Assembly (NCBI GenBank): GCA_020633435.1
Contig: JACKDP010000002.1
Location: forward strand, 631,788 to 695,787
DNA: 64,000 bases
Direction of reading: 5' to 3'
Source of the DNA: Myxococcales bacterium
GTDB taxonomy: Bacteria; Myxococcota_A; Bradymonadia; UBA7976; UBA1532
Shown: piece by piece, positions 3,144-56,406 of the stretch
Position numbering within the stretch: the first letter of the stretch is position 1
How the letters are laid out: each line of letters starts with the position of its first letter
The notes under the pieces: model-generated
Database searches by the model: none
The model's input: only the letters and a program-made list of their open reading frames with translations
Told to the model about the DNA's origin: nothing
Program-made: the position numbers and the translations under genes

Positions 3144-3177
3144 CGAAGTCTAAAGGCGTTTTCGGCCAGCAGCCGGG

Positions 3178-3585: not shown

Positions 3586-3595
3586 CGCCGCCAGC

Positions 3596-4273: not shown

Positions 4274-4401
4274 GACCGGCAGGATAAGTCGGCGCCCGCT
4301 GGATGGCCAGGGCCGCCATCGCCGATGCACCTGCCTGCACAGCCCGCTGGACTTCCCACGACCGGTCGCCAACACTGCACGCCAAAGCCCTCGGAGGTCC
4401 C

Positions 4402-5967: not shown

Positions 5968-5978
5968 GAGGAGAGCCT

Positions 5979-6431
5979 GTGCTGAACATCGGTGATTCTG
6001 CTCCGGATTTCGTCGCCCACACCGCCGAGGGCGACGTGACGCTGGCGGCGCTCTGCGCGGAGGGCCCCTTCGTCCTCTACTTCTACCCGGCCGACTTCAC
6101 GCCCATCTGCACGAAGCAGGCGTGCATGTTCCGCGACATCCACCCCGAGCTGGTGGCGGCGGGCGTGCGCGTGGTGGGGGTCAGCAGCCAGGGGGACAGC
6201 AGCCACGAGGCCTTCCGCCACCAGCACGACCTGCCCTTCCCGCTGCTGCCCGACAAGGACGAGGCCATTGCCGGCGCCTTTGGCGTAAAGGGGCCGTTCG
6301 GGCTCACCCGGCGCGCTTCCTTCCTCATGGACGGGGACGGCCGCGTCGTCGATCGCCTGGTCGCCGACCTGCGCGTCGCGCGGCACGAGGCCTTCGCCCG
6401 CAAGGCCATCGAGCGCTTCGGGAAGCGTTAG
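5979..6431 (+). CDS. bcp: peroxiredoxin, Bcp-type thiol peroxidase (thioredoxin fold)
   Basis: GTG start preceded by a GAGAGGAGAG Shine-Dalgarno. VLNIGDSAPDFVAHTAEGDVTLAAL...FVLYFYPADFTPICTKQACMFRD matches the Bcp/PrxQ active-site consensus, with peroxidatic Cys in TPIC. Confidence 0.85.
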   Translation: MLNIGDSAPDFVAHTAEGDVTLAALCAEGPFVLYFYPADFTPICTKQACMFRDIHPELVAAGVRVVGVSSQGDSSHEAFRHQHDLPFPLLPDKDEAIAGAFGVKGPFGLTRRASFLMDGDGRVVDRLVADLRVARHEAFARKAIERFGKR

Positions 6432-6596
6432 CAGGCTGTTGAAAGAAGCTCCCGTCGCATCGCCGGCGCGCGCGGGCCAGCTGCTGCGTCGTCAGAAGTC
6501 CTCGACAATGCTCGGCATTGCCTGCGGTCTTCCTCCTTGCATCTGGCCCACTCGCACTCGCCGAGTGCTCGGTCCACTCATTTCAACAGCCTGCTA
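6429..6596. repeat. 168-bp element bounded by a perfect 16-bp terminal inverted repeat (TAGCAGGCTGTTGAAA ... TTTCAACAGCCTGCTA) with an internal 7-bp-arm palindrome GCACTCGcCGAGTGC; MITE-like element or long bidirectional terminator hairpin between convergent genes
   Basis: Left arm 6429-6444 (includes the bcp stop codon TAG), right arm 6581-6596. Flanks are AGCGT on the left and GAGCGT on the right. No ORF inside. Confidence 0.5.
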
Positions 6597-6609
6597 GAGC
6601 GTCGATGCG

Positions 6610-9336: not shown

Positions 9337-9394
9337 GGGCTCCTCCAGGACGGACCGCCGCCATGGTGAGGAGTGGGGCCCCCTCGGTGCAACC

Positions 9395-11125
9395 TCAGGG
9401 CACCGTGATGCGCTCCAGGTCGAGGCCACCGGCGAAGAGGTAGGAGACGGCCTGGGAGTAGCCGTAGACCAGGACGCCGCAGCCGGTGGGGCAGTCGAGC
9501 CGCCGCTGGCCGGGGCGGACGGGGAAGCGGCCCCCGGCGAAGAGCTCGCCGAACGGGCGAAGCTGCCCGCCGATGTCCGTGCCGTCGAGCTGGACGGCCG
9601 CCCCCTCCCGGGCCACCACCGAGATGTACTGGGCGTCGTACTCCTGGGGCACCAGGAACGTGTAGTCGGTGCGGAACTGCTCCACGGGCACCGCGAACGC
9701 CAGGGCGGGGTCGCCGGCGGCGCCGTCGGTGGACTGCAGGAAGTGCCCCACCAGGACGGGGTTGCTGGCGGTGATGCGGGTGTCGCCGTTGATGAAGACG
9801 TCGCACGACGCCCCGGCGCGCAGGATGCCGCAGCGGCCCTGGGCCGGCGCCGGATCGAAGTCGACGCGGGTGTCGTCGCGGTGGGCCAGGATGCGCAGCA
9901 GGTCCGTCTCGCGCTTGCGCGGCTGGGTGCGGGCCACCGCGAAGTTCGAGCCCCACGTCGAGATGGGGAAGAGCTGCTCCTCGATGTGATCGGCGCAGCA
10001 CGACTGCTGCTCCGTGGGCAGCACCGTCGCCTCGTGGCCCACGAAGACGCCGAAGGGGGTGCCGTCCGGGCTGCGCACACGCGTGCCCGTGAGATCGCCG
10101 TCGGCCACCGCCTCCAGGTTCAAGACCTGGAACCGGTTCAGAGAAAACCGATGGGTTTCGCCGGGTTGCAGGGCCGTCACCTGGTCGCCTGCCCGAATGG
10201 CGGCGCTGGGCTCGACCTCGACGGTCGTGTTGTCGGCCACGGCCACGACCGTCACATAGCCGTTGTAGTCGTTGGTGTCCGGGCGCCGGGTCAGCGTCGG
10301 CAGGGTGAGCGCGAGGTACTGGCCGTCGTAGGCGTGCTCGGGCACCAGCAAGGAGCCGTCGTTGGAGAAGACGTCCACGTTGTCGAGGGGGTTGAACTGG
10401 TAGGCGACGATGGGCGCGCTGCTCGTCAGGTGGTACGCCTTCGCGCTGATGCCGGAGTGATCCAGCGACAGATCGGGGAAGCCGAGCGCCTGGGGGAACA
10501 GGCTCGCCAGCGCCCCCGGCGCTACCATCTCGGCGTGGCGGTTGCCGCGGGCGTCCTCCAGGACGACCTCGACGGGCTCGGCCTGCGGGTTGGAGACCAC
10601 GATGGCGAACGGCGACCGCTGGGCGTCGAGGGCGCAGATGGGGGCCGTCTGGCACTGGAAGCCGCGGGGGCAGGCCTGGCCGTAGTCGCAGACGCCCGCG
10701 GTGCCGCCCCCGCCATGGCAGGCCGGGATGTCATCGTGGACGGGGCTGCGGTTGCAGCGCCCGCCCGCGGGGACGCCGAGCACCTCCACGGCGTTGTCCA
10801 GGTCCACCGGCCAGTACGAGCAGCCCAGGTACGAGCGCGCCGCCGCGGCCTGGAAGCACAGGTCCCCGCCCCCGCCCCCGCCCCCGCGGCAGTTGTCCGT
10901 CGGCGTCTGGACGAAGCCGCCGCCCCGGCAGATCTGCTCGACCTCGCCCAGGCAGCGCGTCTCGCCCTCCGTGCAGAAGGCGATGACGGCCCCGTCGGCC
11001 CCGCCGCCCAGGGCGCCCGCCACCTCGTCGTCGGCGCACCCGACCAGCGCGATCAGCGCCAGCCACACACTGTGTGCAGACCCTCTCCCCACGGCGGCTC
11101 CTCTCCCGTATCGTGGCTCATCCAA
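9395..11125 (-). CDS. secreted lipoprotein with an IgGFc-binding-protein N-terminal-like domain (start codon uncertain: TTG at 11125 or a downstream GTG)
   Basis: Lipobox signal VWLALIALVGCADD. A Cys/Gly-rich N-terminal region is followed by a large beta-rich domain containing SCCADHIEEQLFPISTWG. It is 59 nt upstream of, and co-directional with, the 6610..9336 lipoprotein gene, so the two probably form an operon. Confidence 0.5.
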   Translation of the reverse strand: MDEPRYGRGAAVGRGSAHSVWLALIALVGCADDEVAGALGGGADGAVIAFCTEGETRCLGEVEQICRGGGFVQTPTDNCRGGGGGGGDLCFQAAAARSYLGCSYWPVDLDNAVEVLGVPAGGRCNRSPVHDDIPACHGGGGTAGVCDYGQACPRGFQCQTAPICALDAQRSPFAIVVSNPQAEPVEVVLEDARGNRHAEMVAPGALASLFPQALGFPDLSLDHSGISAKAYHLTSSAPIVAYQFNPLDNVDVFSNDGSLLVPEHAYDGQYLALTLPTLTRRPDTNDYNGYVTVVAVADNTTVEVEPSAAIRAGDQVTALQPGETHRFSLNRFQVLNLEAVADGDLTGTRVRSPDGTPFGVFVGHEATVLPTEQQSCCADHIEEQLFPISTWGSNFAVARTQPRKRETDLLRILAHRDDTRVDFDPAPAQGRCGILRAGASCDVFINGDTRITASNPVLVGHFLQSTDGAAGDPALAFAVPVEQFRTDYTFLVPQEYDAQYISVVAREGAAVQLDGTDIGGQLRPFGELFAGGRFPVRPGQRRLDCPTGCGVLVYGYSQAVSYLFAGGLDLERITVP

Positions 11126-43669: not shown

Positions 43670-44578
43670 TCAAGGCCGCCTTGGAGGCGGCGCGGCCGGC
43701 GGCGCCGCCGAGCCGCTGACGGCCCCGCCCACCGGGGCCCGCACCACCCACAGCCCCGACGCCAGGATGAGCAGCCCGCCGAGCGGCGCGAGCGCCGGCA
43801 GGCGATCCCCCAGCACGAGCGCCCCCGAAGCGACCCCCACCATGGGCTCCAGGTAGGTCAGCACGCCGGCCTTGGCCGCCGAGACGTGCTGCAGGCCCCA
43901 CAGGAAGAAGAGGCCGCCGAGCGTCCCCGCGAGCGCCGCGCCGCCCATGATCCAGACGACGCCCCCCAGCGTCGGCGTCGGCGCCATCAGCGCCACCGGC
44001 AGCAGCAGCAGGCCTCCGATCCAGGTGTGCCAGACGAGCAGCTCGGCGGGCGTGAGCACGCTGCCCGACCGCTTCAAGATGAGGACCTGGGCGGCGTAGA
44101 AGAAGGCGGACGCCGCCCCGAGGAGCCCGGTCAGCGCCGCGGGGCCGATGGCGAGGACGTCGCCGCCGAGGAGCAGGCCGAGGCCGAGCAGCGCCACCGG
44201 CAGCGCCACCACCACCTGCCAGCTCGGCCACCGCCGCAGGATCAGCGGCGATCCCAGGGCCACCAGCACCGGCGCGAGGTAGTGCGAGAGCACCGCCACG
44301 GGGACGGGGCCGCGGTGCAGCGCCTCGAAGTACAGCCAGGCGTTGGCGGCGTCGGTGATGCCCGTGGCCCACAGCGGCCACCAGGCCGCGAAGCCCCGTG
44401 GGATGCGCCGCGGCAGCCAGGGCACCGCGCACGTCCCCATGGTGATGAGCGCGATGCAGCCCGCCAGCGGGCCGGCGATGCCCGAGAAGTGGATGGCCAG
44501 GCCCCACAGCCCCCAGAGCGAGGCCGAGAGGCCGATGGCGAGGCTGCCGCGCAGCTGGAAGTCGGGGGCGGTGGTCAT
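43670..44578 (-). CDS. DMT superfamily transporter (EamA-like, 10 TM helices)
   Basis: 302 aa with ten hydrophobic segments and a duplicated EamA-like organisation (for example AWLYFEALHRGPVPVAVLSHYLAPVLVAL). The 3' end overlaps, convergently, the tail of the preceding repeat-protein region. Confidence 0.8.
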   Translation of the reverse strand: MTTAPDFQLRGSLAIGLSASLWGLWGLAIHFSGIAGPLAGCIALITMGTCAVPWLPRRIPRGFAAWWPLWATGITDAANAWLYFEALHRGPVPVAVLSHYLAPVLVALGSPLILRRWPSWQVVVALPVALLGLGLLLGGDVLAIGPAALTGLLGAASAFFYAAQVLILKRSGSVLTPAELLVWHTWIGGLLLLPVALMAPTPTLGGVVWIMGGAALAGTLGGLFFLWGLQHVSAAKAGVLTYLEPMVGVASGALVLGDRLPALAPLGGLLILASGLWVVRAPVGGAVSGSAAPPAAPPPRRP

Positions 44579-44694
44579 GGCGCCCTCATGCCCGAGGCGG
44601 CGCGCGGACGCAACGACGGCGACACTCCCCCTGGTCCCGGGGGTCCGAAGTGTGGATCATGCGGGGCGACGGGGGCGCGCTCCAGGGAGGGATC

Positions 44695-47600
44695 ATGTCT
44701 GCACGGCCAAACCGGGTAATCCGTATTCTTTTCGCGGCGTTGCTGCCACTCTGGGGCGGCGGCTGCAGCGAGGATGACGGATCGGGGAAGGTCGCAGACG
44801 CGGCCCAGGACGCCGCCCAGGGGCGCCAGGACCAGTTCCGGCCGCAGCCGGACATGCAGCCGTTCGACCTGGCCGTCGTCCCGCCGCCCCGCGACGCGGC
44901 GGTGCCCGACGCCGCGCCGCTGGACGCCAGCCCGCCCGACATGGCCGTGCTGCCGCCCGACATGGCCGTGCTGCCCCCCGACATGGCGGTGTCGCCGCCC
45001 GACATGGGTGCCCCCGACATGGGCTGTGCGGCGCGGGAGACGTGCCATAACGGCATCGATGATGACTGCAACGGCATCGTGGACGACCCGCTCGTCTGCG
45101 ACCAGGAGCTGCCGCCCTGCGTGGCCGACATGCCCTGCTTCACCGGGCTCGTGGGCGTCTGCGCCGTCGGCACCAGCCGCTGCCCGAACGGGCCGGAGGG
45201 CGAGGCGGCCTGCGACGCCCTGGAGCAGCCGGCGGCCGAGGTCTGCGATGGCGCCCTCGACGAGGACTGCGATGGCAACGTCGACGAGGGCTTCGGCCTC
45301 GACGAGCCGTGCGAGGCCGGGGTCGGGAGTTGCCGCGCCCTCGGCGTCTTCGAGTGCGCCCCGGACGGCGGCGCGCGCTGCACCGCCGCCCCGCGGGGCG
45401 CCCGCCTCGAGCGCTGCGATGGCATCCCGGCCGACGAAGACTGCGATGGCACGGTGGACGAGGGCTTCGAGGACCTGGGCCAGCCCTGTCAGGTAGGCCT
45501 GGGCATCTGCGAGGCCGCGGGCGAGATCATCTGCGCGGCCAACGGCATCAGCACGCGCTGCTCGGCGCGGCCCGCGGGCCCCGGCAGCGAGTTGTGCAAC
45601 CAGGCCGACGATGACTGCGATGGCCGGGTGGACGAGGTCTTCCCGGAGCTGGGCCAGGCCTGCGTGCTCGGCCTCGGGGCCTGCCGCGCCGAGGGCGTGC
45701 GCGTCTGCTACAGCGAGAACCGGACGTACTGCAACGCCCAGCCGGGCCTGCCCGACCTGGAGACGTGCAACGCCATCGACGATGACTGCGATGGCAACAC
45801 CGACGAGGGCCCCGATGGCCGCCCGCTGACGGTGGCCTGCTACGGCGGCCCCGAGGGCACCGCCGGCGTCGGCCTCTGCCGCCAGGGTCGGCGGGCCTGC
45901 GGGGCCCAGGGGCTCGGGGCCTGCGAGGGCGAGGTCGATCCCGCCGAGGAGATCTGCGACGGCAGCGACAACGACTGCGATGGCCGCGTGGACGAGGGGG
46001 TCGACGGGGCGCCCATCCGCCAGCCCTGCTACGCCGGGCCCGACGGCACGGCGGGCGTGGGGGCCTGCCGCCAGGGCAACCGGACGTGCCGCAACGGGGC
46101 GCTGAGCCTCTGCGAGGGCCAGGTCCAGCCCCGCGTCGAGATCTGCGACTCCCTCGACAACGACTGCAACGGCCAGGTCGACGACGTGGCGGTCGGCGGC
46201 TGCGACTGCGTCCCGCTGGTGCGCCGCGCGTGCTACTCGGGGCCCGACGGCACCGAGGGCGTCGGTCGCTGCCGGGCGGGCAACCAGAACTGCCGCGCCG
46301 ACGGCACGGGCTACGGCGAGTGCTTCGACGAGTTCACGCCGAGCGCGGAGGCCTGCAACGGCGAGGACGACGACTGCGACGGCCGGGTGGACGAGGAGGT
46401 CGACGGCATCGGCGCGGCGTGCAACGTGGGCCTGGGGGCCTGCGGCGCGGCGGGCGTCTTCATCTGCGATCCGGCGCGGGGCCCGCGCTGCAGCGTGAAC
46501 GCCGGCGAGCCCAACCCCGAGACCTGCGATGGCATCGACAACGACTGCGACGGCGCCACGGACGAGCAGTTCCGGCTGGGCCTGGTGTGCCGGCTGGGCA
46601 TCGGGGCCTGCGCCCGCCAGGGCGAGGTCATCTGCGCGCCGGATGGCAGCACCTCCCAGTGCTCGGTGGAGCCTGGGCAGCCCGAGGAGGAGCGCTGCGA
46701 TGGCCTCGACAACGACTGCGACGGGCGCAGCGACGAGGGCCTGAACCTGGGCCTGCCCTGCGAGGTCGGCGTGGGCGCCTGCCTCGCGCGGGGTGTCCGC
46801 GTCTGCGGCAACGACGGGGTGGTGAGCTGCTCGGTCGCCCCGGGCGCCCCCCAGGCCGAGCGGTGTGACAGCCGCGACAACGACTGCGATGGCTCGACGG
46901 ACGAGGGCTTCGGGGTCGGCGACGCCTGCACGGCGGGCCAGGGCGTCTGCGCCCGGGACGGCCTGCGCCAGTGCTCCGCCGCCGGCGGCGTGGAGTGCAG
47001 CGCCGCGCCCGCGCCCGGCGGCGCGGAGCTCTGCGACGGCGAGGACAACGACTGCGATGGGCGCACCGACGAGGACTTCGCGCTCGGCGTGGCCTGCGCC
47101 GCGGGCGTCGGCCAGTGCCGCGCCAACGGCCAGACGATCTGCGCCGCCAACGGCCAGGGCACGACGTGCGGGGCCCAGCCCGGCGCGCCAGCAGCCGAGA
47201 CGTGCGACGACCGCGACAACGACTGCGATGGCCGCGCCGACGAGGACTTCGACCTGGGCAGCGCGTGCACCAACGGCGTGGGCGCCTGCTCGCGGGCCGG
47301 CGTGACGCGGTGCCAGGGGGGCGTGGCCGCCTGCGACGCGGTGCCAGGCCAGCCCCGGGCCGAGACGTGCGAGGGCACCGACCAGGACTGCGATGGCCGC
47401 ACCGATGAGGGCTTCCCCGTCGGCGACCGCTGCGAGGCGGGGGCGGGCGCGTGCCTGGAGGTCGGCGTGACGCGCTGCCTGGCCAACGGCCAGATCGAGT
47501 GCAGCGCCCGGGCCCATGACCCCGAGCCCGAGCTCTGCGACAGCCGCGACAACGACTGTGATGGGCGCGTGGACGAGGGCTTCGCGCTGGGCCAGGCGTG

Positions 47601-50600
47601 CAGCCGGGGCCAGGGCATCTGCCTGCGGGACGGCACCACGCGCTGCGGCCAGAACGGCCAGCTCGAGTGCAGCGCCCTGCCGGGCGTCGGCCGGGCCGAG
47701 ACGTGCGACGGCCGCGACGAAGACTGCGACGGCCGCACCGATGAGGGCTTCCCGGTGGGCCAGCCCTGCGAGGCGGGCGTGGGCGAGTGCTACCGGGCCG
47801 GGATGCTGCAGTGCGCCATCGGCGGCGGCACCCAGTGCAGCGTCCAGGCCGGCGCCCCGCGGGCCGAGCGCTGCGACGCGGTCGACAACGACTGCGATGG
47901 GCGGTCCGACGAGGGCCTGAACCTGGGCCAGGCCTGCATCGCGGGCGCGGGCCAGTGCGAGGCCGAGGGCACGCTCGCCTGTGGCCAGGCCGGCGCGGTC
48001 ATCTGCCAGGCCGAGCAGCCGATGGGCGGCGCCGAGGAGTGCGACGACCTCGACAACGACTGCGATGGCCGCGTCGACGAGGGCGGCGTCTGCCCCGACC
48101 TGGAGCCGCCGGACGTCACGCTGCTGCTGGAGCCCGTCTTCGTGCTCTTCAACGGCCTGGCCCGCGTCACGGTGACGGTCACCGATGACCAGGATCCCGA
48201 TCCCCAGGTCACCGCGACCATCGACGGGATGCCCATCCCCCTCGACGCCAACGGCCAGTACCTCTACCAGGCCAACGAGGCCGGGGCGCACGAGGTCGTG
48301 GCCGTCGCGGTGGACGCCGCCGGCCGCCGGGGCGAGGCGCGCGACTACTTCCGCGTCCAGAACCTCGACGACAACGAGCCGCCGGTGGTGCGCATCATCG
48401 CGCCCGCCGACACCAGCGAGCTGACGGGCGTGACCGAGATCCATGGCCGCCTGGAGGACCCGAACTTCTTCTCGTGGAAGCTCGAGATCAGCTTCGACCA
48501 GCAGAACTGGCAGGTCATCAACACGGGCATGACCAGCGGCCCCGACGTCATCGTGGGCTCGATCGATCCCACCGTGATGGCGCCTGGCTTCGTCTACGTG
48601 CGCCTGACCGGCGAGGACGAGAACAGCCTCAACCAGTTCCAGATCGTCACCTACCGCGTGCCGGACGGGGTCTCCCTGGGCGAGACGAAGCTGGGGATCC
48701 GCGACTTCGAGATGCCGGTGAAGGGCTTCTCGCTGGCCTTCGACCGCGAGTACGACAGCCGCCGCAAGTACCTCGACGGCGACTTCGGCTTCGGCTGGAA
48801 GCTCACGGCCACCCGCGTGGAGGTGCGCGAGGACCTGCAGAGCAACGTCATGGTCGCGCTGCCCGATGGCCGCCGCGAGGTCTTCGCGATCGCGTACAAC
48901 TTCCCGGGATTCTTCCCCTTTGGGACGATGAGCTACGTCGCGCCGCCGGGCGTGTACTCCACACTGACGTCGCCTCAGGCCTGCGCCGTGGCCAACACGG
49001 CCCAGGGCGTCGTCTGCTTCGACACGGGCCGGCCGCCCTCTTTCAGCGTCTCGAACTACGTGCTGACCACCCAGGACGGCACCCGCTACGAGATCCATGA
49101 CCAGCGCGGCCTGGACCGGCTCACCGATCGCGAGGGCAACCAGTTCACGTTCGCCCGCGACCGCATCACGTCCAACGTCGGCGTCGAGATCACGATGGCT
49201 CGCGACGCCTTCGGGCGCATCACGTCCATGACGGACCCGCGGGGCGGCATCATCGAGTACCGCTACGACGCGGTGGGCAACCTGACGGAGGTCGAGGATC
49301 AGGCGGGCGGCGTGCAGACCTACGTCTACGACGACGAGCACGGCCTGCTGCGCGTCCTCGGGCCGGACGGCAACCCGGTCATCCGCACCGAGTACGACGA
49401 GGACGGCCGCAAGGTCCGCGACGTCGACGCCCTCGGCAACGAGACCGTCTACGACTACGACTTCGACAACCGCATCCAGACGGTCACCAACCGCCGCGGC
49501 GACGTCATCGTCTACGAGTACAGCGAGATCGGGCAGATCCTGTCCCGCGTCGACGAGATGGGGAACGAGGCCACGTTCGACTACAACGCCCTCGAGCAGC
49601 TCGTCGGCGAGACCCTGCCGGATGGCTCGACGTTCGGCTACGCCTACGACGCCCGGGGCAACCAGACGCGGGTGACGCTGCCGACCGGCGAGTCCAACAC
49701 CTTCGCCTTCGACGCCTTCGGGCAGCCCGTCGCGATGACGGACCCGGCCGGGCACGTCAACCGCATGACCTACGACGCCTCGGGGCGGCTGACGTCCATT
49801 GAGAACGGGGCCGGCCACGTCCTGACGCTGGAGTACGACGCCAACGGCAACCGCCAGGCGGTCGTCGAGCCCGACGGCCAGCGGACGACCTACGGCTACG
49901 ACGCCCTCGGCAACATCACGAACATGGCGCGGGACGGCGGGTTCACCCGGACGTACGCCTACAACGCCGCCTCCGAGATGACGCGGCTGGTGGACTCCGA
50001 CGGCAACGCCATGGACCTGGACTACGACGCGGTGGGCCGGCTGCAGCGCGTGGTCGACCCGCTCGGCGGCGAGATCATCGCCGAGCGCGACGGCCTGGGG
50101 CGCATCACCCGCCTGACGGACGCCGATGGCTCGGTTCGCCGCTACCGCTTCGAGCCCCGCGGGCTGATGGAGGCCATCACCGACCCCAACGGCGGCGAGA
50201 CGACCTACGCCTACGACGCCGAGGGCGCGCTCGTCGGCCTGACCTACCCGGATGGCGCCGAGGTCCAGCTCACCCGCGACGCGGGCGGGCGCATCACCTC
50301 CCGGCGCGATCCGCTCGGCAACGTCGCCAGCTACCAGCTCGACGCCATGGGCCGGGTCATCAGCCGCACGGACCGCAACGGCGATCCCATCGTCTACGAG
50401 TACAACACGCTCGGTGACATGGTCCGGCGGAGCGACGCCGACGGCGAGACGACCTACGAGTACGACACGGTCGGCCGCCTGACGCGGGTCGTCAGCATCG
50501 AGGACGTCATCGTCTACGAGTACGACGAGGACGACCGCCTCGTGGCCGAGGAGCCCCTGGCCGGCTTCCGCCTGGAGCACACCTGGGACGCCGCCGCGCG

Positions 50601-52212
50601 CCGGGCCGCCACCCGCGGCCCCGAGGGCGAGTCCACGTTCGACTACGACGCCGGCGGCCGCCTGGCCACCGTGGACGACCCCGTCCTCGGCCCCATCGAC
50701 TTCGTGCGCAACCCCGAGGGGCGCCTGACGGGCATCCGCTACCCCAACGGCGTGGCCATCGACTACACCTACGACGCCATGGGCCGCCCCGTCCGCTGGG
50801 AGGCCCGCGCCGCGGGTGGCGCCGTCGTGGCCGGCGAGACGTGGACGTTCGACGCCGTCGGCCGCCCCACCCGCGTCGAGCGGGAAGACGGCCGCACGTT
50901 CGAGCTGACCTACGACGCGGCGGGCCAGATCACCCGGTCCGTCCTGCGCACCAACGGCGCCGTCACGCGGGACGTGGCCTACACCTACGACGCCCGCGGC
51001 GGCATGACCTCGCGCACCGTCAACGGCCAGCTCGCCGCGCACCAGCTCGACGCCGACCAGCGCCTCACCCGCGACGGCACCTGGACGTACCGCTACGACG
51101 CGGCCGGCAACCTGGTGGAGCGCACCCGCCTCGATGGGGCCGGGCGTGAGGCCTTCACCTACGACGCCGAGCGCCACCTGACGTCGTTCGCGCGCTTCAA
51201 CGGCCAGGGCGTCCAGCAGGCCGGCGTGATCTACCGCTACAACGGCCAGGGCGAGCGCGCCGCGCGCGTCGAGGGCGGCGTCGAGGAGCAGTACGCGACC
51301 AGCTTCGGCGAGCGCGGCTGGGTGCGCAGCCCGGCGGGCCAGACCACCCAGCGCTTCGTCTACGGCGACCAGTCCGACCAGGCCCTGGCCCTCGACAAGC
51401 CCGACGGCCCCGTCTACTTCGCCCTCGACGGCCGCGGCAGCGTGGCCGCCGCCTTCGACGGCGCGGGTCAGCTCGTCGGCCGCTACCTCTACGACGACTT
51501 CGGCGCCCTGCTCGACCAGGCCGGCCCCTTCACCTCGCCTCTGGGCTTCGAGGGCCGGCCCCGCGACCCGACGACGGGCCTCTACGACTTCCGCGCCCGC
51601 AGCTACGACCCGGCGGCGGGCCGCTTCCTCCAGCAGGACCCCGAGTCGGGCAGCCTGCAGCGGCCCATCACCCAGCACCCCTACCTGTATGGCGCCAACA
51701 GCCCGTGGTTCTACCGCGATCCGAACGGCCGGGCGGCGGCCATCAGCTACGCCTTCCTGTCGAGCCGCTTCGTCACGGGCTCCGGCAACGTGAACACGCC
51801 GAGCCATGGCGAGCTGCTGGGCGCGTTCATCGGCTTCATGCACGGCTTCTCGGCGGGCGCCTTCGTCTTCCTGGCCAACATCCTGGAGCTGAGCGGCACC
51901 GGGCAGGACATCAAGACCATCTGGGGCATCGCGACGAGCCGCACCAAGACGAAGCTCGACGAGATCGCCAACCTCCTCGGCCGCGGCGCGGCCCTGGACG
52001 ACAGCGGCTTCGCCGGCGCTTTCGTGAACGGCGCCAAGTTCCAGGTCGGCTTCAAGTTCTCCCTGAAGCTGCCCAAGCCCGTCAGCAAGGGCATCGCCCT
52101 CGCCGGCGGCAAGACGTCGAAGGGCGTCTGGGCCATCGAGAAGAGCGGTGGCGGCTTCAAGGAGGGCAACAAGCAGTTCCTGAACTTCCTGGAGCAGGTC
52201 GGCCCGCAGTAG
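44695..52212 (+). CDS. Rhs/YD-repeat polymorphic toxin lipoprotein (2505 aa): lipobox signal, PPDMAVL repeats, about 18 MopE-type Cys-rich repeats, YD-repeat shell, RHS repeat-associated core, C-terminal toxin domain of unknown type
   Basis: GGGAGGG RBS. The signal is MSARPNRVIRILFAALLPLWGGGCS. About 18 repeats carry E-x-CDG-x-DNDCDG-x-x-DEGF...C...G-x-G-x-C (for example ERCDSRDNDCDGSTDEGFGVGDACTAGQGVCARDG). There are dozens of YD repeats (YDAVGNLT, YDDEHGLL, YEYDTVGRLT and others). The RHS core is GLYDFRARSYDPAAGRFLQQDP...HPYLYGANSPWFYRDPNG, followed by about 160 aa of non-repetitive sequence with a hydrophobic stretch (LLGAFIGFMHGFSAGAFVFLANILEL). Confidence 0.85.
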   Translation: MSARPNRVIRILFAALLPLWGGGCSEDDGSGKVADAAQDAAQGRQDQFRPQPDMQPFDLAVVPPPRDAAVPDAAPLDASPPDMAVLPPDMAVLPPDMAVSPPDMGAPDMGCAARETCHNGIDDDCNGIVDDPLVCDQELPPCVADMPCFTGLVGVCAVGTSRCPNGPEGEAACDALEQPAAEVCDGALDEDCDGNVDEGFGLDEPCEAGVGSCRALGVFECAPDGGARCTAAPRGARLERCDGIPADEDCDGTVDEGFEDLGQPCQVGLGICEAAGEIICAANGISTRCSARPAGPGSELCNQADDDCDGRVDEVFPELGQACVLGLGACRAEGVRVCYSENRTYCNAQPGLPDLETCNAIDDDCDGNTDEGPDGRPLTVACYGGPEGTAGVGLCRQGRRACGAQGLGACEGEVDPAEEICDGSDNDCDGRVDEGVDGAPIRQPCYAGPDGTAGVGACRQGNRTCRNGALSLCEGQVQPRVEICDSLDNDCNGQVDDVAVGGCDCVPLVRRACYSGPDGTEGVGRCRAGNQNCRADGTGYGECFDEFTPSAEACNGEDDDCDGRVDEEVDGIGAACNVGLGACGAAGVFICDPARGPRCSVNAGEPNPETCDGIDNDCDGATDEQFRLGLVCRLGIGACARQGEVICAPDGSTSQCSVEPGQPEEERCDGLDNDCDGRSDEGLNLGLPCEVGVGACLARGVRVCGNDGVVSCSVAPGAPQAERCDSRDNDCDGSTDEGFGVGDACTAGQGVCARDGLRQCSAAGGVECSAAPAPGGAELCDGEDNDCDGRTDEDFALGVACAAGVGQCRANGQTICAANGQGTTCGAQPGAPAAETCDDRDNDCDGRADEDFDLGSACTNGVGACSRAGVTRCQGGVAACDAVPGQPRAETCEGTDQDCDGRTDEGFPVGDRCEAGAGACLEVGVTRCLANGQIECSARAHDPEPELCDSRDNDCDGRVDEGFALGQACSRGQGICLRDGTTRCGQNGQLECSALPGVGRAETCDGRDEDCDGRTDEGFPVGQPCEAGVGECYRAGMLQCAIGGGTQCSVQAGAPRAERCDAVDNDCDGRSDEGLNLGQACIAGAGQCEAEGTLACGQAGAVICQAEQPMGGAEECDDLDNDCDGRVDEGGVCPDLEPPDVTLLLEPVFVLFNGLARVTVTVTDDQDPDPQVTATIDGMPIPLDANGQYLYQANEAGAHEVVAVAVDAAGRRGEARDYFRVQNLDDNEPPVVRIIAPADTSELTGVTEIHGRLEDPNFFSWKLEISFDQQNWQVINTGMTSGPDVIVGSIDPTVMAPGFVYVRLTGEDENSLNQFQIVTYRVPDGVSLGETKLGIRDFEMPVKGFSLAFDREYDSRRKYLDGDFGFGWKLTATRVEVREDLQSNVMVALPDGRREVFAIAYNFPGFFPFGTMSYVAPPGVYSTLTSPQACAVANTAQGVVCFDTGRPPSFSVSNYVLTTQDGTRYEIHDQRGLDRLTDREGNQFTFARDRITSNVGVEITMARDAFGRITSMTDPRGGIIEYRYDAVGNLTEVEDQAGGVQTYVYDDEHGLLRVLGPDGNPVIRTEYDEDGRKVRDVDALGNETVYDYDFDNRIQTVTNRRGDVIVYEYSEIGQILSRVDEMGNEATFDYNALEQLVGETLPDGSTFGYAYDARGNQTRVTLPTGESNTFAFDAFGQPVAMTDPAGHVNRMTYDASGRLTSIENGAGHVLTLEYDANGNRQAVVEPDGQRTTYGYDALGNITNMARDGGFTRTYAYNAASEMTRLVDSDGNAMDLDYDAVGRLQRVVDPLGGEIIAERDGLGRITRLTDADGSVRRYRFEPRGLMEAITDPNGGETTYAYDAEGALVGLTYPDGAEVQLTRDAGGRITSRRDPLGNVASYQLDAMGRVISRTDRNGDPIVYEYNTLGDMVRRSDADGETTYEYDTVGRLTRVVSIEDVIVYEYDEDDRLVAEEPLAGFRLEHTWDAAARRAATRGPEGESTFDYDAGGRLATVDDPVLGPIDFVRNPEGRLTGIRYPNGVAIDYTYDAMGRPVRWEARAAGGAVVAGETWTFDAVGRPTRVEREDGRTFELTYDAAGQITRSVLRTNGAVTRDVAYTYDARGGMTSRTVNGQLAAHQLDADQRLTRDGTWTYRYDAAGNLVERTRLDGAGREAFTYDAERHLTSFARFNGQGVQQAGVIYRYNGQGERAARVEGGVEEQYATSFGERGWVRSPAGQTTQRFVYGDQSDQALALDKPDGPVYFALDGRGSVAAAFDGAGQLVGRYLYDDFGALLDQAGPFTSPLGFEGRPRDPTTGLYDFRARSYDPAAGRFLQQDPESGSLQRPITQHPYLYGANSPWFYRDPNGRAAAISYAFLSSRFVTGSGNVNTPSHGELLGAFIGFMHGFSAGAFVFLANILELSGTGQDIKTIWGIATSRTKTKLDEIANLLGRGAALDDSGFAGAFVNGAKFQVGFKFSLKLPKPVSKGIALAGGKTSKGVWAIEKSGGGFKEGNKQFLNFLEQVGPQ

Positions 52213-52237
52213 GCCGGCCGCCCCGGCTGGAGGTCCT

Positions 52238-52729
52238 ATGTCGGTCTTGCTCTCGGTGGCGCTGCTGGCGCCGCCCACCTGCGCCCCCGAGGCGCTCGCC
52301 AAGGTCGAGGAGGCGCTGGCGCAGGCGCCCGCGAAGCGTGCCCACGCGCTCGCCCTGCAGGGCGTGTCGGAGGCCTGCGCCCTGCCACCGAAGCTGGCGG
52401 CGGGCGTGCGGGGCGTGGCGGCCGCCCCACCCGACCAGGTCGCCCTGCTGGAGGCGCGGTGCATCACCCAGGCGACGGACCTGTGGACGCAGGCCTGCCC
52501 GGCCGGCGTGAAGGTCTTCGCCCAGCTCGCGAGCGCGGCCCCGGACGCCCGCCCGGCGCTCCTCCTCGCCGCCTGCCAGCTCGACCGCTTCGGCCTCACC
52601 CTGGCCCAGCTGCAGGGCGGGGACGTCTCGCCGCTGGGCGTCATGCTGGCCGCCGTCGTGCACGGTCCAGGCCGCGCCGCCCTCGTCCAGGCCCTCGTGC
52701 TCTCCCCCCGACCGGAGGCAACCCCTTGA
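52238..52729 (+). CDS. small protein (163 aa) immediately downstream of the Rhs toxin gene; candidate cognate immunity protein
   Basis: Starts 26 nt after the Rhs stop with a GGAGG RBS. The Ala/Leu-rich sequence has conserved Cys residues and a hydrophobic N-terminus (MSVLLSVALLAPPTC). The position is the one usually occupied by RhsI-type immunity genes. The stop overlaps the TTG start of the next gene. Confidence 0.45.
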   Translation: MSVLLSVALLAPPTCAPEALAKVEEALAQAPAKRAHALALQGVSEACALPPKLAAGVRGVAAAPPDQVALLEARCITQATDLWTQACPAGVKVFAQLASAAPDARPALLLAACQLDRFGLTLAQLQGGDVSPLGVMLAAVVHGPGRAALVQALVLSPRPEATP

Positions 52730-54201
52730 TTCGCCAGCTCTTTCTCCTCGCCGCCGTCGCCAGCCTCGTCGGCTGCGGCGGCGCTGCTACGCGGGCCCCG
52801 CGCCCCGACCTCGTCATCCTGCAGCTCAACGACGTCTACGAGGCCAACCCCGTGGGCGGCGAGGGCGGCCTGGCCCGGGTGGCGACGCTGCGCAAGCGCC
52901 TGGAGGCCGAGGGCGCGCCCGTGGTCACCGTCCTCGCCGGCGACTTCCTGAGCCCCTCCGCCATCGGGCTGGCCAAGGTCGACGGCGAGCGCCTGGCGGG
53001 CAAGCAGATGGTCGCCGCCTTCAACGCCCTCGGCCTCGACTACGTGACGTTCGGCAACCACGAGTTCGATGTCTCCGAGGCCCAGCTCCTCGCGCGCATC
53101 GGCGAGTCGAAGTTCACCTGGTTCTCCGGCAACGTCCTGCGGGGCAGCGGGGAGCCGTTCCCGGGTGTGCAGCCCCGCATCGTCCGCACCGTGCAGACGC
53201 CCTCCGGCGCCTGGACGCTGGGTCTGCTGAGCGTGACGCTCAACAGCAACCCCCACGACTGGGTCCGCTACGACGCCGACTACGTCGCGGTGGCGAAGCG
53301 CGAGGTCGAGGCCCTCAAGGCCGCCGGCGCCGACCTGATCGTCGCCCTCACCCACCTCGACCTGGACGACGACGAGGCCATCGCCGAGGACGTCCCGCCC
53401 GTGGACTTCATCCTGGGCGGTCACGAGCACGAGAACGTCCGCATCTATCGCGGCCGGGACTTCACCCCGGTCATCAAGGCCGACGCCAACGCCCGCACCG
53501 TCTACGTCCACCGCCTGACCCGCGGCGACGGCGGCGCCCCCACCCTGACGTCCGAGCTCGTGCGCATCGACGCCGCGATCCCCGACGATCCCGAGGTCGC
53601 GGCCGCCGCGAAGACGTGGACGGACCGCGCCTTCGACAGCTTCCGGGCCGACGGCCTGCAGCCGGAGCGCGTCGTCACCACCGCCTGGGTCGACCTCGAC
53701 GGCCGCGAGGCCAGCGTCCGCAACCGCAGCACCGACCTCACCCGGCTGCTCGCCGAGGCCGTCGCGGCGGGTGGCCAGGACGCCCAGGTGGCCCTCTACA
53801 ACAGCGGCTCCATCCGCATCGACGACACCATCCCGGCCGGCACCCCGGTCACGGAGTACGACGTCCTGCGCATCCTGCCGTTTGGTGGCCAGGTGGTCAC
53901 GGTCACCCTCACCGGCGCGGTCCTCAGCCAGGTCCTGGACGCCGGCCTCGCCAACCGCGGCAAGGGCGGCTACCTGCAGACGCTCGGCGTGGCCGGGACC
54001 CGCGGCGCCTGGACGCTCGGCGGCGCCCCTCTCGTGGCCGACCAGCCGTACCGCGTGGCGCTCAACGACTTCCTGCTGACGGGCAAGGAGGACAACCTGG
54101 GCTTCCTGAAGCCCGACGCCGAAGGCGTCAGCGACCGGCACGATGGCCCCGACCTGCGCCGCGCCTTCATCGACCGCCTGTCCCGGGGCGCCGACGGCTG
54201 A
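52726..54201 (+). CDS. bifunctional metallophosphatase/5'-nucleotidase (UshA-like) lipoprotein
   Basis: TTG start with a GGAGG RBS. The lipobox signal is LIRQLFLLAAVASLVGC. The calcineurin-like motifs ILQLNDVYE, GDFLSPS, GNHEFD and GGHEH are followed by a 5'-nucleotidase C-terminal domain. Confidence 0.8.
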   Translation: MIRQLFLLAAVASLVGCGGAATRAPRPDLVILQLNDVYEANPVGGEGGLARVATLRKRLEAEGAPVVTVLAGDFLSPSAIGLAKVDGERLAGKQMVAAFNALGLDYVTFGNHEFDVSEAQLLARIGESKFTWFSGNVLRGSGEPFPGVQPRIVRTVQTPSGAWTLGLLSVTLNSNPHDWVRYDADYVAVAKREVEALKAAGADLIVALTHLDLDDDEAIAEDVPPVDFILGGHEHENVRIYRGRDFTPVIKADANARTVYVHRLTRGDGGAPTLTSELVRIDAAIPDDPEVAAAAKTWTDRAFDSFRADGLQPERVVTTAWVDLDGREASVRNRSTDLTRLLAEAVAAGGQDAQVALYNSGSIRIDDTIPAGTPVTEYDVLRILPFGGQVVTVTLTGAVLSQVLDAGLANRGKGGYLQTLGVAGTRGAWTLGGAPLVADQPYRVALNDFLLTGKEDNLGFLKPDAEGVSDRHDGPDLRRAFIDRLSRGADG

Positions 54202-54243
54202 GACCGGCGCGGTCCCGACCCGGGTCCCGACGAGGAGCTGCGA

Positions 54244-54897
54244 ATGGCCCGGCCCGTCCCCAACCTGCACCCCGACGCCGCCCACCCCGGCGCCGCCCCC
54301 GACTGCGCCGCCTGCGACGGCTCGGGCTGGGTCGCGCTGGACGAGCCGACGATCACCGTCGCCCCGTGCGCCTGCGTTCAGGTCTGCCCCCGCTGCGGTG
54401 GGAGCGGCCGGCTCGCTGGCGGCCTCGAAGCGTGCGCCTGCCACGCCGGCGCGGGGCGCATCGACCTGCTCAACGCCGCGGGCCTGCCCGCCCTGGATGC
54501 CCCCCTCGACCCCCCATCCCCCGCCCTGTCGGCGTGGTTTCAGCGCTATCGACCGGAAGATGGCTGGCCCTGGCTGCTCGTCACCGGCCCATCGCCCGGA
54601 CCAGTGACCGCCCAGCTCATCCGCCTCATCACCGGCGTCGGCGTACCCACGGCCCGGGTGACCGCCCACACCGAGACCGTCGACTGGCGTGCCTGGCGTC
54701 GGCTCGTGGTCTGCTACGACCTCGCCCTCCACGGACCGCGGCGCGCAGCCCGGCTGGTCGACACCTGCGCCGACCACGGCCTGACGCTGGTGCTCTGGTC
54801 GCCCATGGGCCTCTACCCCTCCGCCGGCCCCGGCCTCGACACGGCCATCGGCGACGACGCCGCCGCGACACTGCTCGAGCGCTGCGCCCTCGCCTGA
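54244..54897 (+). CDS. hypothetical protein with two DnaJ-type CxxCxGxG zinc-finger motifs
   Basis: CAACDGSGWV and CPRCGGSGRL. GC3-rich codon usage. No other recognisable domain. Confidence 0.5.
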   Translation: MARPVPNLHPDAAHPGAAPDCAACDGSGWVALDEPTITVAPCACVQVCPRCGGSGRLAGGLEACACHAGAGRIDLLNAAGLPALDAPLDPPSPALSAWFQRYRPEDGWPWLLVTGPSPGPVTAQLIRLITGVGVPTARVTAHTETVDWRAWRRLVVCYDLALHGPRRAARLVDTCADHGLTLVLWSPMGLYPSAGPGLDTAIGDDAAATLLERCALA

Positions 54898-54930
54898 GCC
54901 AGCCCAACCCGCGCCCGCCCGGGTCCTACC

Positions 54931-55052
54931 GGTCCTACCGGGTAGCCCGGCGAGCGGGTGCACCCGTGCCGCGCTGCTGGAATCTGGCCATCCCGGTCAT
55001 ACCGGGTAGTCCGGTGGAATGGTGCAACCGTGCCGTGGGACTGGAATCTGGC
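54931..55052. repeat. two tandem ~58-bp direct repeats (54931..54988 and 54995..55052, ~80% identical), each containing the palindromic core CCGGT-nnn-ACCGGG/TACCGGGTA; REP-like element adjacent to the IS200-like transposase gene
   Basis: Copy A is GGTCCTACCGGGTAGCCCGGCGAGCGGGTGCACCCGTGCCGCGCTGCTGGAATCTGGC. Copy B is GGTCATACCGGGTAGTCCGGTGGAATGGTGCAACCGTGCCGTGGGACTGGAATCTGGC. They sit in the convergent intergenic region 3' of the RAYT gene, with an extra GGTCCTACC duplication at the left edge. Confidence 0.65.
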
Positions 55053-55222
55053 GGGGCGGGCTGGGTGTCGTGGGGCGCGTTGGAGGCCTGGCGACCCGTC
55101 AGGCACCGGCGACAGCGTCGCCGTGCGCGACCCAACCGCCGCCACGGGGGCTTCCGGGCGCACGTTCCCTGAGCGCCGGACCGGCTGCGCGCTTCAACGA
55201 CTTCGAGGGCGCCGGCGGGCGG

Positions 55223-56158
55223 TCAGGCCGCGCCGGCTCGGGGTCCCCTCGGGCGGGCGAAGGCCGGGGGCAGCGTGTGCGGCGGCCACGGGATCATCAG
55301 CTGCGTCGGGTCGGCCTGCCAGGCGTGGAAGGCCCGCGTCGCCCGCGAGTAGGCTTCGCGCAGGGCCTCATGGGCGTCGCGCCACTCCTGGTGGTGCTCC
55401 GGCGGGCCATGCACCACCGGGGCGGGACTCCGGTCTCGCACGCGCGGCTTCGTCATGGGGTCGAGGCGCCGCAGCGTCTCGGGATCGGGGATGCGCACGC
55501 CGGCCTTCTTCCGCTTCGGCCGCGCCTGGCTGGCCACGTCGTCAGCGAGCTGCCACATCAGCGCGCGGTGGTCCTTCGGGCTCAGGGCCTCGAGGCCGGG
55601 CAGCCGGTCGATCCGCACCGTCAACGTCCTGGGGTCCTGGCCGGCGTACGCAAACACGCCCTCCACCGGCTTGCCGAACAGCAGGAACGGCGTCGAGCAC
55701 GCGAAGAAGTCGTCGGCCGGGTGCCGCACCAGGAACTGCGCCGTGGCCTGGCCCATGATGTACTGCAGCCGCTGCAGGGCGTGCTCCTCGGTGGTGATCT
55801 GGATGCAGTGGTTCTGCTCAAGCAGGCTGCCGGTTCGCCCCAGCAACTGGTTGATCCGCCTGGAGATTTCTCGCAGCGTCCACTCCAGGAAGGCGCTCTT
55901 GTGGGCCAGGGTCGGCGCGCCGATGAGCAGGTGCAGGTGGTTGGACAGGAAGTGGAAGCCGTAGACGTCGATGAGCGGGAACTTCTCCTGGGCGCGGGCG
56001 AGGACGCCCTGGAGGATCTCGACGCACCTCTCGGTGGGGATGAAGGCGAAGCGGTCGTCGACGACCTTGCTGGTGATCTCGTAGAGCATCATCAGGACGC
56101 CGAGCCGGGCGCTCATGAAGGCGCGGTGGACGAGCTCGATCCTCAACTTCTGGGCCAT
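55223..56158 (-). CDS. IS200-like / REP-associated tyrosine transposase (RAYT, Y1 HUH family)
   Basis: From the internal ATG (MAQKLRIELVHRAF...). The HUH motif is FLSNHLHLLIGAP, and the catalytic Tyr region is GSLLEQNHCIQITTEEHALQRLQYIMGQATAQFLVRHPADDF (the W/Q-x-x-F-H-D...YI-x-x-NP-V pattern). The N-terminal 78 codons of the long ORF are Arg/Gly-rich and probably untranslated. Confidence 0.7.
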   Translation of the reverse strand: MAQKLRIELVHRAFMSARLGVLMMLYEITSKVVDDRFAFIPTERCVEILQGVLARAQEKFPLIDVYGFHFLSNHLHLLIGAPTLAHKSAFLEWTLREISRRINQLLGRTGSLLEQNHCIQITTEEHALQRLQYIMGQATAQFLVRHPADDFFACSTPFLLFGKPVEGVFAYAGQDPRTLTVRIDRLPGLEALSPKDHRALMWQLADDVASQARPKRKKAGVRIPDPETLRRLDPMTKPRVRDRSPAPVVHGPPEHHQEWRDAHEALREAYSRATRAFHAWQADPTQLMIPWPPHTLPPAFARPRGPRAGAA

Positions 56159-56406
56159 GGCGGGAGCCTCCGTGGTGAGTGCTCCCTTGCTTTCGGTCAG
56201 TCGCGGCGCGTGTCGCAGGATTTCTGAGAAAAAGTGCATCGGGCGACGCCCGCACGCTGTGGCCGCCGCTCCCCGCCGGGCCTGCCAACCTGGGACGCGC
56301 GCGCCCCACTTCGCCGGCCCACGCACCACCCCAGGCCCCCCCACGCGCTGGCACGGACGCTGCTTTCGCTCCCCCGCCGACAGGGAACGCACACCCGGGG
56401 GACTCG

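Follow-up and report, generated by a model that had tools for sequence, protein, structure and literature searches.

A C-terminal domain with a conserved glycine-zipper helix in a lipoprotein-type Rhs protein from the Bradymonadia

The Rhs gene and its C-terminal domain

The window analysed here, a 64,000-nucleotide stretch of the genome of a Myxococcales bacterium (Myxococcota_A, Bradymonadia; assembly GCA_020633435.1, contig JACKDP010000002.1, positions 631,788 to 695,787), carries a lipoprotein-type Rhs gene that ends in a 160-residue C-terminal domain (CT). A preliminary description, drawn from the sequence alone, had presented this domain as an unrecognised toxin domain, either membrane-active or pore-forming or of a new fold, and the protein encoded downstream of it as the candidate immunity protein. 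The CT was found to belong to a family of domains that share a hydrophobic glycine-zipper helix. The Rhs gene and its parts are arranged as follows:

44695–52212, plus strand: lipoprotein-type Rhs gene, about 2,505 aa (reading of the open reading frame (ORF), Pfam scan and start-site inspection)
44695–44766, plus strand: putative signal peptide with a lipobox-like LWGGGC end, MSARPNRVIRILFAALLPLWGGGC (direct sequence reading; signal peptidase II (SPII) cleavage presumed)
45040–48070 (approximate boundaries), plus strand: about 16–18 MopE-type Cys-rich repeats (PF11617; Pfam E 9.6e-71 in 18 stretches; DxDCDG motifs at residues 204–1135)
48679–51729, plus strand: plug (GETKLGIRDF...GDFGFGW) followed by the RHS/YD-repeat shell, as far as the putative cleavage site (Pfam and PDB matches)
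51490–51729, plus strand: Rhs-associated core (TIGR03696, E 1.7e-16), within which lie RARSYDPAAGRF and the PxxxxDPxG motif
51730–52209 (stop codon 52210–52212), plus strand: CT, 160 aa (translation, profile search, alignment, AlphaFold2)
51805–51891 (CT residues 26–54), plus strand: predicted helix 1, hydrophobic, with the G31-x3-G35-x3-G39-x3-G43 zipper and the IGFx[HQ]GF...F motif (alignment, AlphaFold2, hydropathy)
51910–51993 (CT residues 61–88), plus strand: predicted helix 2, polar to amphipathic, with conserved W65, A68 and T72
52006–52032 (CT residues 93–101), plus strand: Gly-rich motif GF[AV]G[AG]Fxx-G101 (alignment)
52150–52209, plus strand: GGFxxG (G141, G142, F143, G146) and a strongly amphipathic terminal helix ending in LxP+ (hydrophobic moment muH 0.61)

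The mechanical ORF of the Rhs gene (44650–52212, plus strand) opens at a GTG at 44650, and the ATG at 44695, which is preceded by GGGAGGG, is probably the true start. The lipobox is non-canonical in the window protein, and clearer ones (FVGC, MVSC, VWAC and LAAAC) are present in relatives from the same family. It is followed by 18 MopE repeats, which presumably serve in adhesion or display at the N-terminus, and then by an Ig-like region that lies between these repeats and the plug motif GDFGFGW. The shell was recognised in the Pfam scan by RHS repeats (PF05593, E 2.8e-89, 18 stretches) and by the TEN_YD-shell family (PF25023), and the Rhs, teneurin and bacterial teneurin-like protein (TLP) shells in the PDB match it with E-values down to 1e-49, as expected of a cocoon-forming RHS/YD shell. 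The match to TIGR03696 ends at the residue just before the CT, at the motif PWFYRDPNG (51703–51729), which is presumed from its sequence to be an autoproteolysis site. The protein has no Pfam match to PAAR or prePAAR, and the neighbouring genes (EamA, cyclophilin, CobW, 5'-nucleotidase, trypsin-like and TSP3) include no genes of a type VI secretion system (T6SS), so that the protein does not classify as a T6SS Rhs effector.

The MopE array (45040–48070) is very long and consists of 'putative metal-binding' C...DxDCDG repeats. In two sister metagenome-assembled genomes (MAGs) the MopE/Rhs gene is split into at least two ORFs (2469–4490 and 4601–9985 at locus L002; 64–5856 and 5771–6757 at locus L003), probably through frameshifts or assembly breaks within the repeats.

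The CT is present in one copy in the window. Its first residue (R, at 51730) directly follows PWFYRDPNG, and translation of the 3' end of the gene yields exactly the sequence quoted in the preliminary description. Since the G+C content at third codon positions (GC3) is 0.97–0.99 across the CT in its coding frame and the encoded protein family is conserved, the domain is certainly coding. Overall G+C dips to 0.67 at the CT, compared with about 0.74 around it; this dip reflects a composition rich in Lys, Phe, Ile and Asn and not foreign codon usage, which by the same GC3 values is native. An antisense ORF with high GC3 (51747–52172, minus strand) was rejected as an artefact of high G+C, because the frame on the plus strand is the one that encodes a conserved protein across the family. 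Across the whole window, the G+C content of which is 73–75%, real genes are overlapped by long antisense frames whose GC3 exceeds 0.95 (for example, 51747–52235 and an ORF of 3,462 aa at 44575–54963, both minus strand); these are composition artefacts, not genes.

The hydrophobic core segment noted at the outset was borne out by two scales. It spans CT residues 27–58 with a Kyte-Doolittle 19-mer maximum of 1.68, and the best 19-mer, FIGFMHGFSAGAFVFLANI, has a Wimley-White octanol energy of -6.8 kcal/mol and is the single segment of the CT competent to form a transmembrane (TM) helix. The Lys/Gly-rich tail is likewise present (11 Gly and 10 Lys in the last 61 residues; net charge of the domain +7), but part of it proved to be a loop of variable length, described below, and its conserved elements are GFxGxFxxG and GGFxxG with the amphipathic terminal helix behind the latter.

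A family of domains with a conserved glycine zipper

The size of the family rests on an exhaustive search with a profile against 1.84 billion cluster representatives, which retrieved 42 proteins at E<=1e-3, ten of them at E<=1e-30. A word-indexed protein search, which returned only short proteins or fragments of <=452 aa, found a single fragment (P0001) for the CT and missed the orthologues, and its negatives are therefore unreliable for giant proteins; related loci were searched for with a six-sequence CT alignment. In nearly all 42 representatives the domain forms the extreme C-terminus of a large Rhs protein. It begins right after a D[PSA]xG cleavage motif in every full-length relative and extends for 109–190 residues (mostly 137–171) to the C-terminus. 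The N-terminal modules vary among the members: MopE repeats (in Myxococcota and Bradymonadia MAGs), cadherin-like He_PIG/Big_9 domains, PKD domains, VWA combined with PASTA, and PA14 combined with HemolysinCabind. A diverged member was found in a MAG of Pedosphaera (Verrucomicrobiota).

Scans against Pfam, NCBIfam and PDB sequences gave no credible match, either for the CT of the window or for the 33 family members that were aligned, and no PDB chain matched the CT or its 33-sequence profile at E<=0.1. The same scans revealed no nuclease, deaminase or ADP-ribosyltransferase signature in the CT, so that the view of an unrecognised domain of about 160 residues in the toxin position of an Rhs protein, free of these signatures, stands. 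Weak Pfam matches to P7_N_core, SLBB, HTH_39, C19orf12 and Lactocin 705 were all far under threshold and were discarded, and none of the Gly-zipper Pfam families matched any of the 33 members at E<=1.

The alignment of these 33 sequences (mean column identity 29%) contains four invariant positions, G35, G101, G142 and G146, and eight further positions that are at least 90% conserved (Y7, G39, F40, F47, A68, T72, G141 and F143). Position 31 is occupied only by Gly (23 members) or Ala (9 members), G35 is found in 33 of 33 sequences and G39 in 32 of 33, and position 43 is Thr, Ala, Pro or Gly. A [GA]xxxGxxxGxxx(small) pattern thus runs through the whole family, inside a hydrophobic helix that also carries the IGFx[HQ]GF...F motif. 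The glycine zipper was reportedly defined by Kim et al. in 2005 as (G,A,S)xxxGxxxG or GxxxGxxx(G,S,T) within a hydrophobic helix, and the pattern of the CT family has this form. Further conserved blocks are W65-x2-A68-x3-T72, the Gly-rich motif ending at G101, and GGFxxG followed by the terminal amphipathic helix. No Asp, Glu, Cys, Ser, Lys or Arg is conserved across the 33 aligned members, and position 38 alternates between His and Gln.

AlphaFold2 modelling with the 33 sequences gave a mean pLDDT of 77, with residues 26–100 and 141–160 above 90, and superseded an earlier run with two sequences (pLDDT 61). Helices were predicted at residues 26–54, 61–88, 94–100 and 143–157, and the Lys/Gly-rich stretch at residues 105–137 has low model confidence and variable length. 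The predicted fold resembles helical bundles of membrane proteins, of a generic long-helix type. A Foldseek comparison of the model with the PDB and BFVD, one of the checks named in the preliminary description, returned nothing below an E-value of 0.9.

With a broader profile, a copy of approximately the first 105 CT residues was detected (E 2e-20) at residues 659–760 of a 3,095-aa protein, P0041, which also contains a transglutaminase core and Ig-like, F5/8-C, SQHop-cyclase-like and PKD domains (locus L030, complete genome GCA_029643245.1, CP116398.1). It is the only non-Rhs context in which the family was seen, and it implies that the helical module is not strictly a C-terminal Rhs tip. The P0041 gene adjoins the flagellar genes fliD, fliS and fliT and a KdpD-type two-component system.

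Inheritance of the domain and the genes downstream of it

The MAGs GCA_041389985.1 and GCA_041390005.1 share the locus, with the EamA gene, the MopE/RHS gene, an ORF of 164 aa and the 5'-nucleotidase gene, and the CTs of both belong to the same family as that of the window. The flanking features in the window are:

43670–44578, minus strand: EamA-family transporter gene, kept as the upstream neighbour in orthologous loci and used as a synteny marker
52238–52729, plus strand: orphan ORF of 163 aa (ORF163), candidate immunity gene, with GGAGG at 52229–52233
52726–54201, plus strand: 5'-nucleotidase/metallophosphoesterase lipoprotein gene, with a TTG start that overlaps the TGA stop of ORF163 (TTGA)

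Comparison of the window with locus L002 gave the following amino acid identities and dN/dS ratios:

CT: 88%, dN/dS 0.21
Rhs core, last 600 aa: 81%, dN/dS 0.28
Rhs shell, preceding 600 aa: 90%, dN/dS 0.13
5'-nucleotidase: 84%, dN/dS 0.26
EamA: 83%, dN/dS 0.18
downstream small ORF: 60%, dN/dS 0.46

Because its identity and dN/dS resemble those of the shell and the flanking genes at a syntenic locus, the CT behaves, by these measures, like any other segment of a chromosomal gene that is passed on vertically and kept by purifying selection. Polymorphic toxins are recognised by a CT that varies between close relatives; here the orthologues keep the same CT, which by this comparison is neither polymorphic among them nor a freshly swapped toxin tip. 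A conserved C-terminus of non-polymorphic orthologues was one of the outcomes that the preliminary description had named as speaking against a toxin domain, and at 88% identity and a dN/dS of 0.21 this is in part what was found.

At greater distance, the CTs of 18 relatives are 25–58% identical to that of the window and their adjoining cores 28–65%, which are similar levels. The correlation between CT and core identity over all pairs is weak (Spearman 0.24), and in a neighbour-joining (NJ) tree of the Rhs core (160 aa, no bootstraps) the members fall into three clades with non-members interspersed, several of these placements being motif-splitting artefacts; these data thus decide neither for nor against an ancient exchange of the CT. 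No close core with a different CT was found, in databases that are sparse for this lineage and so limit this negative, and a metagenome scan with the Rhs core returned only cores at 29–39% identity, none carrying the CT. To judge from these sequences, the CT family is old and rare, and in the lineage of the window it is inherited with the shell and is not an actively exchanged polymorphic tip.

ORF163 is, on the sequence evidence, a real gene, since it has a GGAGG 5 nt upstream, a GC3 of 0.90–0.97 and a dN/dS of 0.46 relative to its orthologue, and begins 25 nt past the rhs stop with no terminator between. The N-terminus described as hydrophobic and signal-like (MSVLLSVALLAPPTC) is short, uncharged and only loosely lipobox-like, and the protein matches nothing in Pfam or NCBIfam and lacks a TM segment. 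Among 5.8 billion proteins only two clusters of homologues were found, each belonging to the same lineage or to a sister lineage, and between two orthologues only the ...LLAPPTC N-terminus and Cys15, Cys47, Cys87 and Cys112 are notably conserved. The TGA that terminates ORF163 shares bases with the TTG at which the 5'-nucleotidase lipoprotein gene begins (ccTTGAtt), a translational coupling that ties ORF163 at least as tightly to that gene as to rhs. No relative of ORF163 was detected by tblastn or blastp beside the other CT-family loci examined. Those loci differ in what follows the CT, which is a Ser/Thr kinase of 589 aa, a MarR-like protein, a transposase-like protein of the IS200 kind, an oxidoreductase, a lipoprotein of 804 aa, a soluble protein of 129 or 148 aa, a 7-TM protein with an ABC ATPase, or no ORF for about 400 nt. 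The downstream proteins have no detectable similarity to one another or to ORF163, and the assignment of ORF163 as an immunity gene is thus one by position only.

Several of these neighbourhoods have features of their own. In a Nannocystaceae MAG the 589-aa kinase gene (434–2203 at L001, 6508–8277 at L016) starts 7 nt past the Rhs stop, where an immunity gene would be expected, and its product has an N-terminal CxxC...C motif. Downstream of P0035, a VWA/PASTA-Rhs protein, a 369-aa protein with about seven TM-like segments and no Pfam match is encoded together with an overlapping ABC-transporter ATPase gene (8423–10149 at L020); this arrangement, the only membrane-protein neighbour found in the family, resembles bacteriocin-immunity ABC systems. 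The same IS200-like transposase-like gene of 427 aa (MARKPRVDVAG...MPNHVHLVLL) lies 3' of the Rhs CT at two Myxococcales loci (6591–7874 at L010 and 2588–3871 at L012), about 100 nt and about 640 nt from the Rhs stop, respectively, and may point to activity of mobile elements at the 3' end of some CT-family genes.

In the window, about 2 kb (54202–56400) is extra relative to L002 and L003, where the trypsin-like gene directly follows the 5'-nucleotidase gene. This segment, with a G+C content of 0.64–0.68, holds two ORFs absent from L002 and L003: one of 217 aa (54244–54897, plus strand) with a weak DnaJ-type CxxCxGxG match, and one of 389 aa (55223–56392, minus strand) with no Pfam match and an HUH-like 'NHLHLLI' motif. 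It may be a small insertion or mobile element. A kinship of the 389-aa ORF with the transposase-like genes of L010 and L012 was considered and dismissed, as no similarity was found.

Possible activities of the domain

Among characterised systems, Tse5-CT of Pseudomonas aeruginosa (RhsP1/PA2684) is probably the closest functional analogue. It comprises about 149 aa with TM and amphipathic helices and no enzymatic motif, inserts spontaneously into lipid, forms depolarising pores and is neutralised by the 2-TM protein Tsi5 (PMC9637101). Like it, the window CT has about 150 residues directly past an Rhs-core cleavage site, TM-like and amphipathic helices, and no enzymatic motif. The two differ in that no sequence similarity was found between the CTs; the PDB entries of Tse5 (8cp6 and 9i9y, in which the presence of a CT chain is unconfirmed) match only the window shell. 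Moreover, Tse5 is a PAAR-type T6SS effector, whereas the window protein is of the Sec/lipoprotein type with MopE repeats and has neither nearby T6SS genes nor a membrane-protein immunity.

The second comparison is with bacterial TLPs, which are surface-displayed proteins with an FN-plug/NHL/YD-shell superfold and variable adhesin N-termini (Raoelijaona et al., Nat Commun 2026; PMC13018210). They have SPII lipoprotein signals in Myxococcota, a PxxxxDPxG cleavage site, and polymorphic shell-enclosed C-terminal domains (CTDs) of about 15 kDa with adjacent immunity genes, and the hydrophobic CTD of the Bacillus inaquosorum TLP (BiTLP) permeabilises Escherichia coli only if directed to the periplasm (PMC13018210). 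The window protein shares with them the YD shell and the PxxxxDPxG motif and, putatively, N-terminal adhesion modules and a lipoprotein signal. Its C-terminal core is matched best in the PDB by the TLP chains 9pt5 and 9ifo (E 1e-41), ahead of T6SS Rhs proteins and Tse5. It departs from the TLPs in several respects. No NHL propeller was matched in the Pfam scan at E<=1, residues 1151–1850 match the TLP and teneurin chains in their YD repeats only, and the YD repeats begin about 130 residues past the plug motif, leaving no room for one, so that the combination of FN-plug, NHL and YD-shell is incomplete. The N-terminal half of its shell has T6SS-type Rhs structures as best PDB matches and is nearer to these. 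The CT has no similarity to the 92-aa BiTLP CTD, its motif was not found in the text-format supplementary files of PMC13018210, and TLP CTDs are highly polymorphic with adjacent immunity genes, a pattern that the window CT does not follow. To judge by sequence, the CT would be analogous to Tse5-CT and the BiTLP CTD and homologous to neither.

Two other groups of toxins offer partial parallels. The passages of PMC5380434 and PMC12744356 that concern glycine-zipper toxins (CdzC/CdzD, EsxX, TspA and VacA-type GxxxGxxxG proteins) describe them as acting on or depolarising membranes, and CdzC/D and EsxX exemplify the recurrence of this motif among antibacterial proteins that depolarise membranes. 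The CT family has [GA]xxxGxxxG in a hydrophobic helix throughout; these toxins differ from it in size, architecture and secretion route (T1SS, T7SS), and no sequence relationship was found. The ionophoric CdiA-CT toxins of contact-dependent growth inhibition (CDI) are presented, in the part of PMC11630599 that deals with them, as C-terminal, non-enzymatic, membrane-inserting modules of large delivery proteins. The CT too is a C-terminal module of a large protein and probably non-enzymatic, as are pore-forming colicin domains in this comparison, but it yields no Pfam or PDB match to either. Colicin pore-forming domains are ten-helix bundles of about 200 aa with a hydrophobic hairpin, and both colicins and CDI ionophores have cognate integral-membrane immunity proteins.

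The conserved hydrophobic glycine-zipper helix and a predicted fold resembling membrane-protein helical bundles make a membrane-active role the best reading of the CT, and the membrane-active or new-fold proposal of the preliminary description survives in this form, without its polymorphic-toxin framing. Specifically, the CT is most likely a shell-encapsulated, membrane-inserting (pore-forming or depolarising) effector domain of an Rhs cocoon, to which we assign a probability of about 0.5 on the strength of sequence and model. In such a mechanism, the adhesin-fused cocoon would be exported by the Sec/lipoprotein route, after which the aspartyl protease of the Rhs core would cut PWFYRDPNG|R, and the basic CT of about 17 kDa would stay enclosed in the YD shell, as in other Rhs, TcC and TLP structures. 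On release at a target cell, the 29-residue glycine-zipper helix would enter the lipid bilayer, aided by the amphipathic helices and Gly-rich motifs, and the CT could then self-associate through its small-residue face into an ion-conducting pore, or depolarise the membrane in another way. The position of the CT, its family, its motifs and its predicted fold are observations, and cleavage, encapsulation, membrane insertion and toxicity are inferred from them. Membrane-permeabilising cargo has a precedent in Rhs-type shells, given Tse5-CT (PMC9637101) and the BiTLP CTD (PMC13018210), and the size of the CT is near the mean of about 15 kDa for shell-encased TLP CTDs (PMC13018210). Several points weigh against a membrane-inserting effector. 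The CT is homologous to no pore former of proven activity, what it resembles in fold are generic bundles of long helices (best Foldseek E-value 0.9), and of its helices a single one has the hydrophobicity needed to cross a membrane. Ordinary purifying selection at a syntenic chromosomal site is unlike that of arms-race toxins. Tse5, colicins and CDI ionophores have membrane-protein immunities, whereas no immunity gene common to the CT-family loci examined was found and some loci have no adjacent small ORF. Finally, the copy inside P0041 indicates that the module can exist as a soluble, non-terminal domain.

The last points would fit a conserved module of this Rhs clade that does not kill, such as a membrane anchor, a translocation device or a structural element of the lumen or plug, serving delivery, attachment or cell-cell interaction in the way that metazoan teneurins kept the shell without a toxin function. 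Vertical inheritance at a syntenic locus with identity on par with the neighbouring genes, CT identity close to core identity in the 18 relatives, the missing conserved immunity gene and the copy in a non-Rhs extracellular giant protein all agree with such a role, and the TLP authors leave a part in cell-cell communication open (PMC13018210). We consider it a serious but less likely alternative, because the CT sits exactly after DPxG, the place of the released effector in every characterised Rhs, TcC and bacterial TLP, because nothing follows the CT that could be translocated, and because basic character together with a glycine-zipper helix typifies membrane-damaging toxins as the cited papers portray them. 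No more likely is a classical polymorphic toxin-immunity pair, in which the CT would be an interbacterial toxin and ORF163 its cognate envelope-located immunity protein. The close spacing of ORF163 behind rhs with its good GGAGG, its position kept in the sister genomes, its purifying selection and its conserved N-terminus and cysteines suit a pair, as does the additional gene found directly downstream of almost all TLP genes (PMC13018210). Homologues confined to sister genomes, the absence of relatives beside the other CT-family loci examined and the overlap with the 5'-nucleotidase gene speak against it; in addition, ORF163 lacks the TM segments that immunity proteins to known membrane toxins have, Tsi5 among them, and at 60% identity it diverges far faster than the CT that it would have to bind (88%). 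An enzymatic toxin of unrecognised fold, for example a lipid-modifying enzyme or a glycosidase acting on the envelope, is improbable by a wide measure: many Rhs and TLP CTDs are enzymes (PMC13018210) and the lack of database matches is compatible with a new one, but the 33 aligned members have no conserved nucleophile, acid/base or metal-ligand position, their invariant residues being Gly, Phe, Ala, Thr and Tyr, and the regions modelled with confidence form a simple helical bundle.

More tentatively, a membrane-inserting CT could represent a new membrane-insertion or pore-forming fold that is the fixed cargo of an ancient, Sec-exported, T6SS-independent Rhs clade spread over several phyla (Myxococcota including Bradymonadia, a Verrucomicrobiota MAG and cyanobacteria-like lineages). 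The CT would then work with no immunity protein of its own, and the module would also have been put to use in a giant surface protein that bears a transglutaminase. The lack of an immunity protein could then mean that prey or eukaryotic membranes, not those of kin, are targeted.

The CT constitutes a new sequence and fold family within a category that is already known, the non-enzymatic membrane-targeting cargo of Rhs/teneurin-like cocoons. For cocoons of this kind that are secreted without a T6SS no delivery mechanism is known, and few of their cargo types have been studied. If the CT does act on membranes, it would offer a tractable model for the release of cargo and the breach of target membranes by such cocoons, as well as a family of pore formers with no relationship to Tse5, colicins or CDI ionophores, and would allow about 40 protein clusters with an unnamed C-terminus to be annotated. 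It would also be an Rhs cargo kept by purifying selection without a matching immunity gene, a case relevant to the question of whether such proteins are used for predation or for defence against eukaryotes, as opposed to competition among kin.

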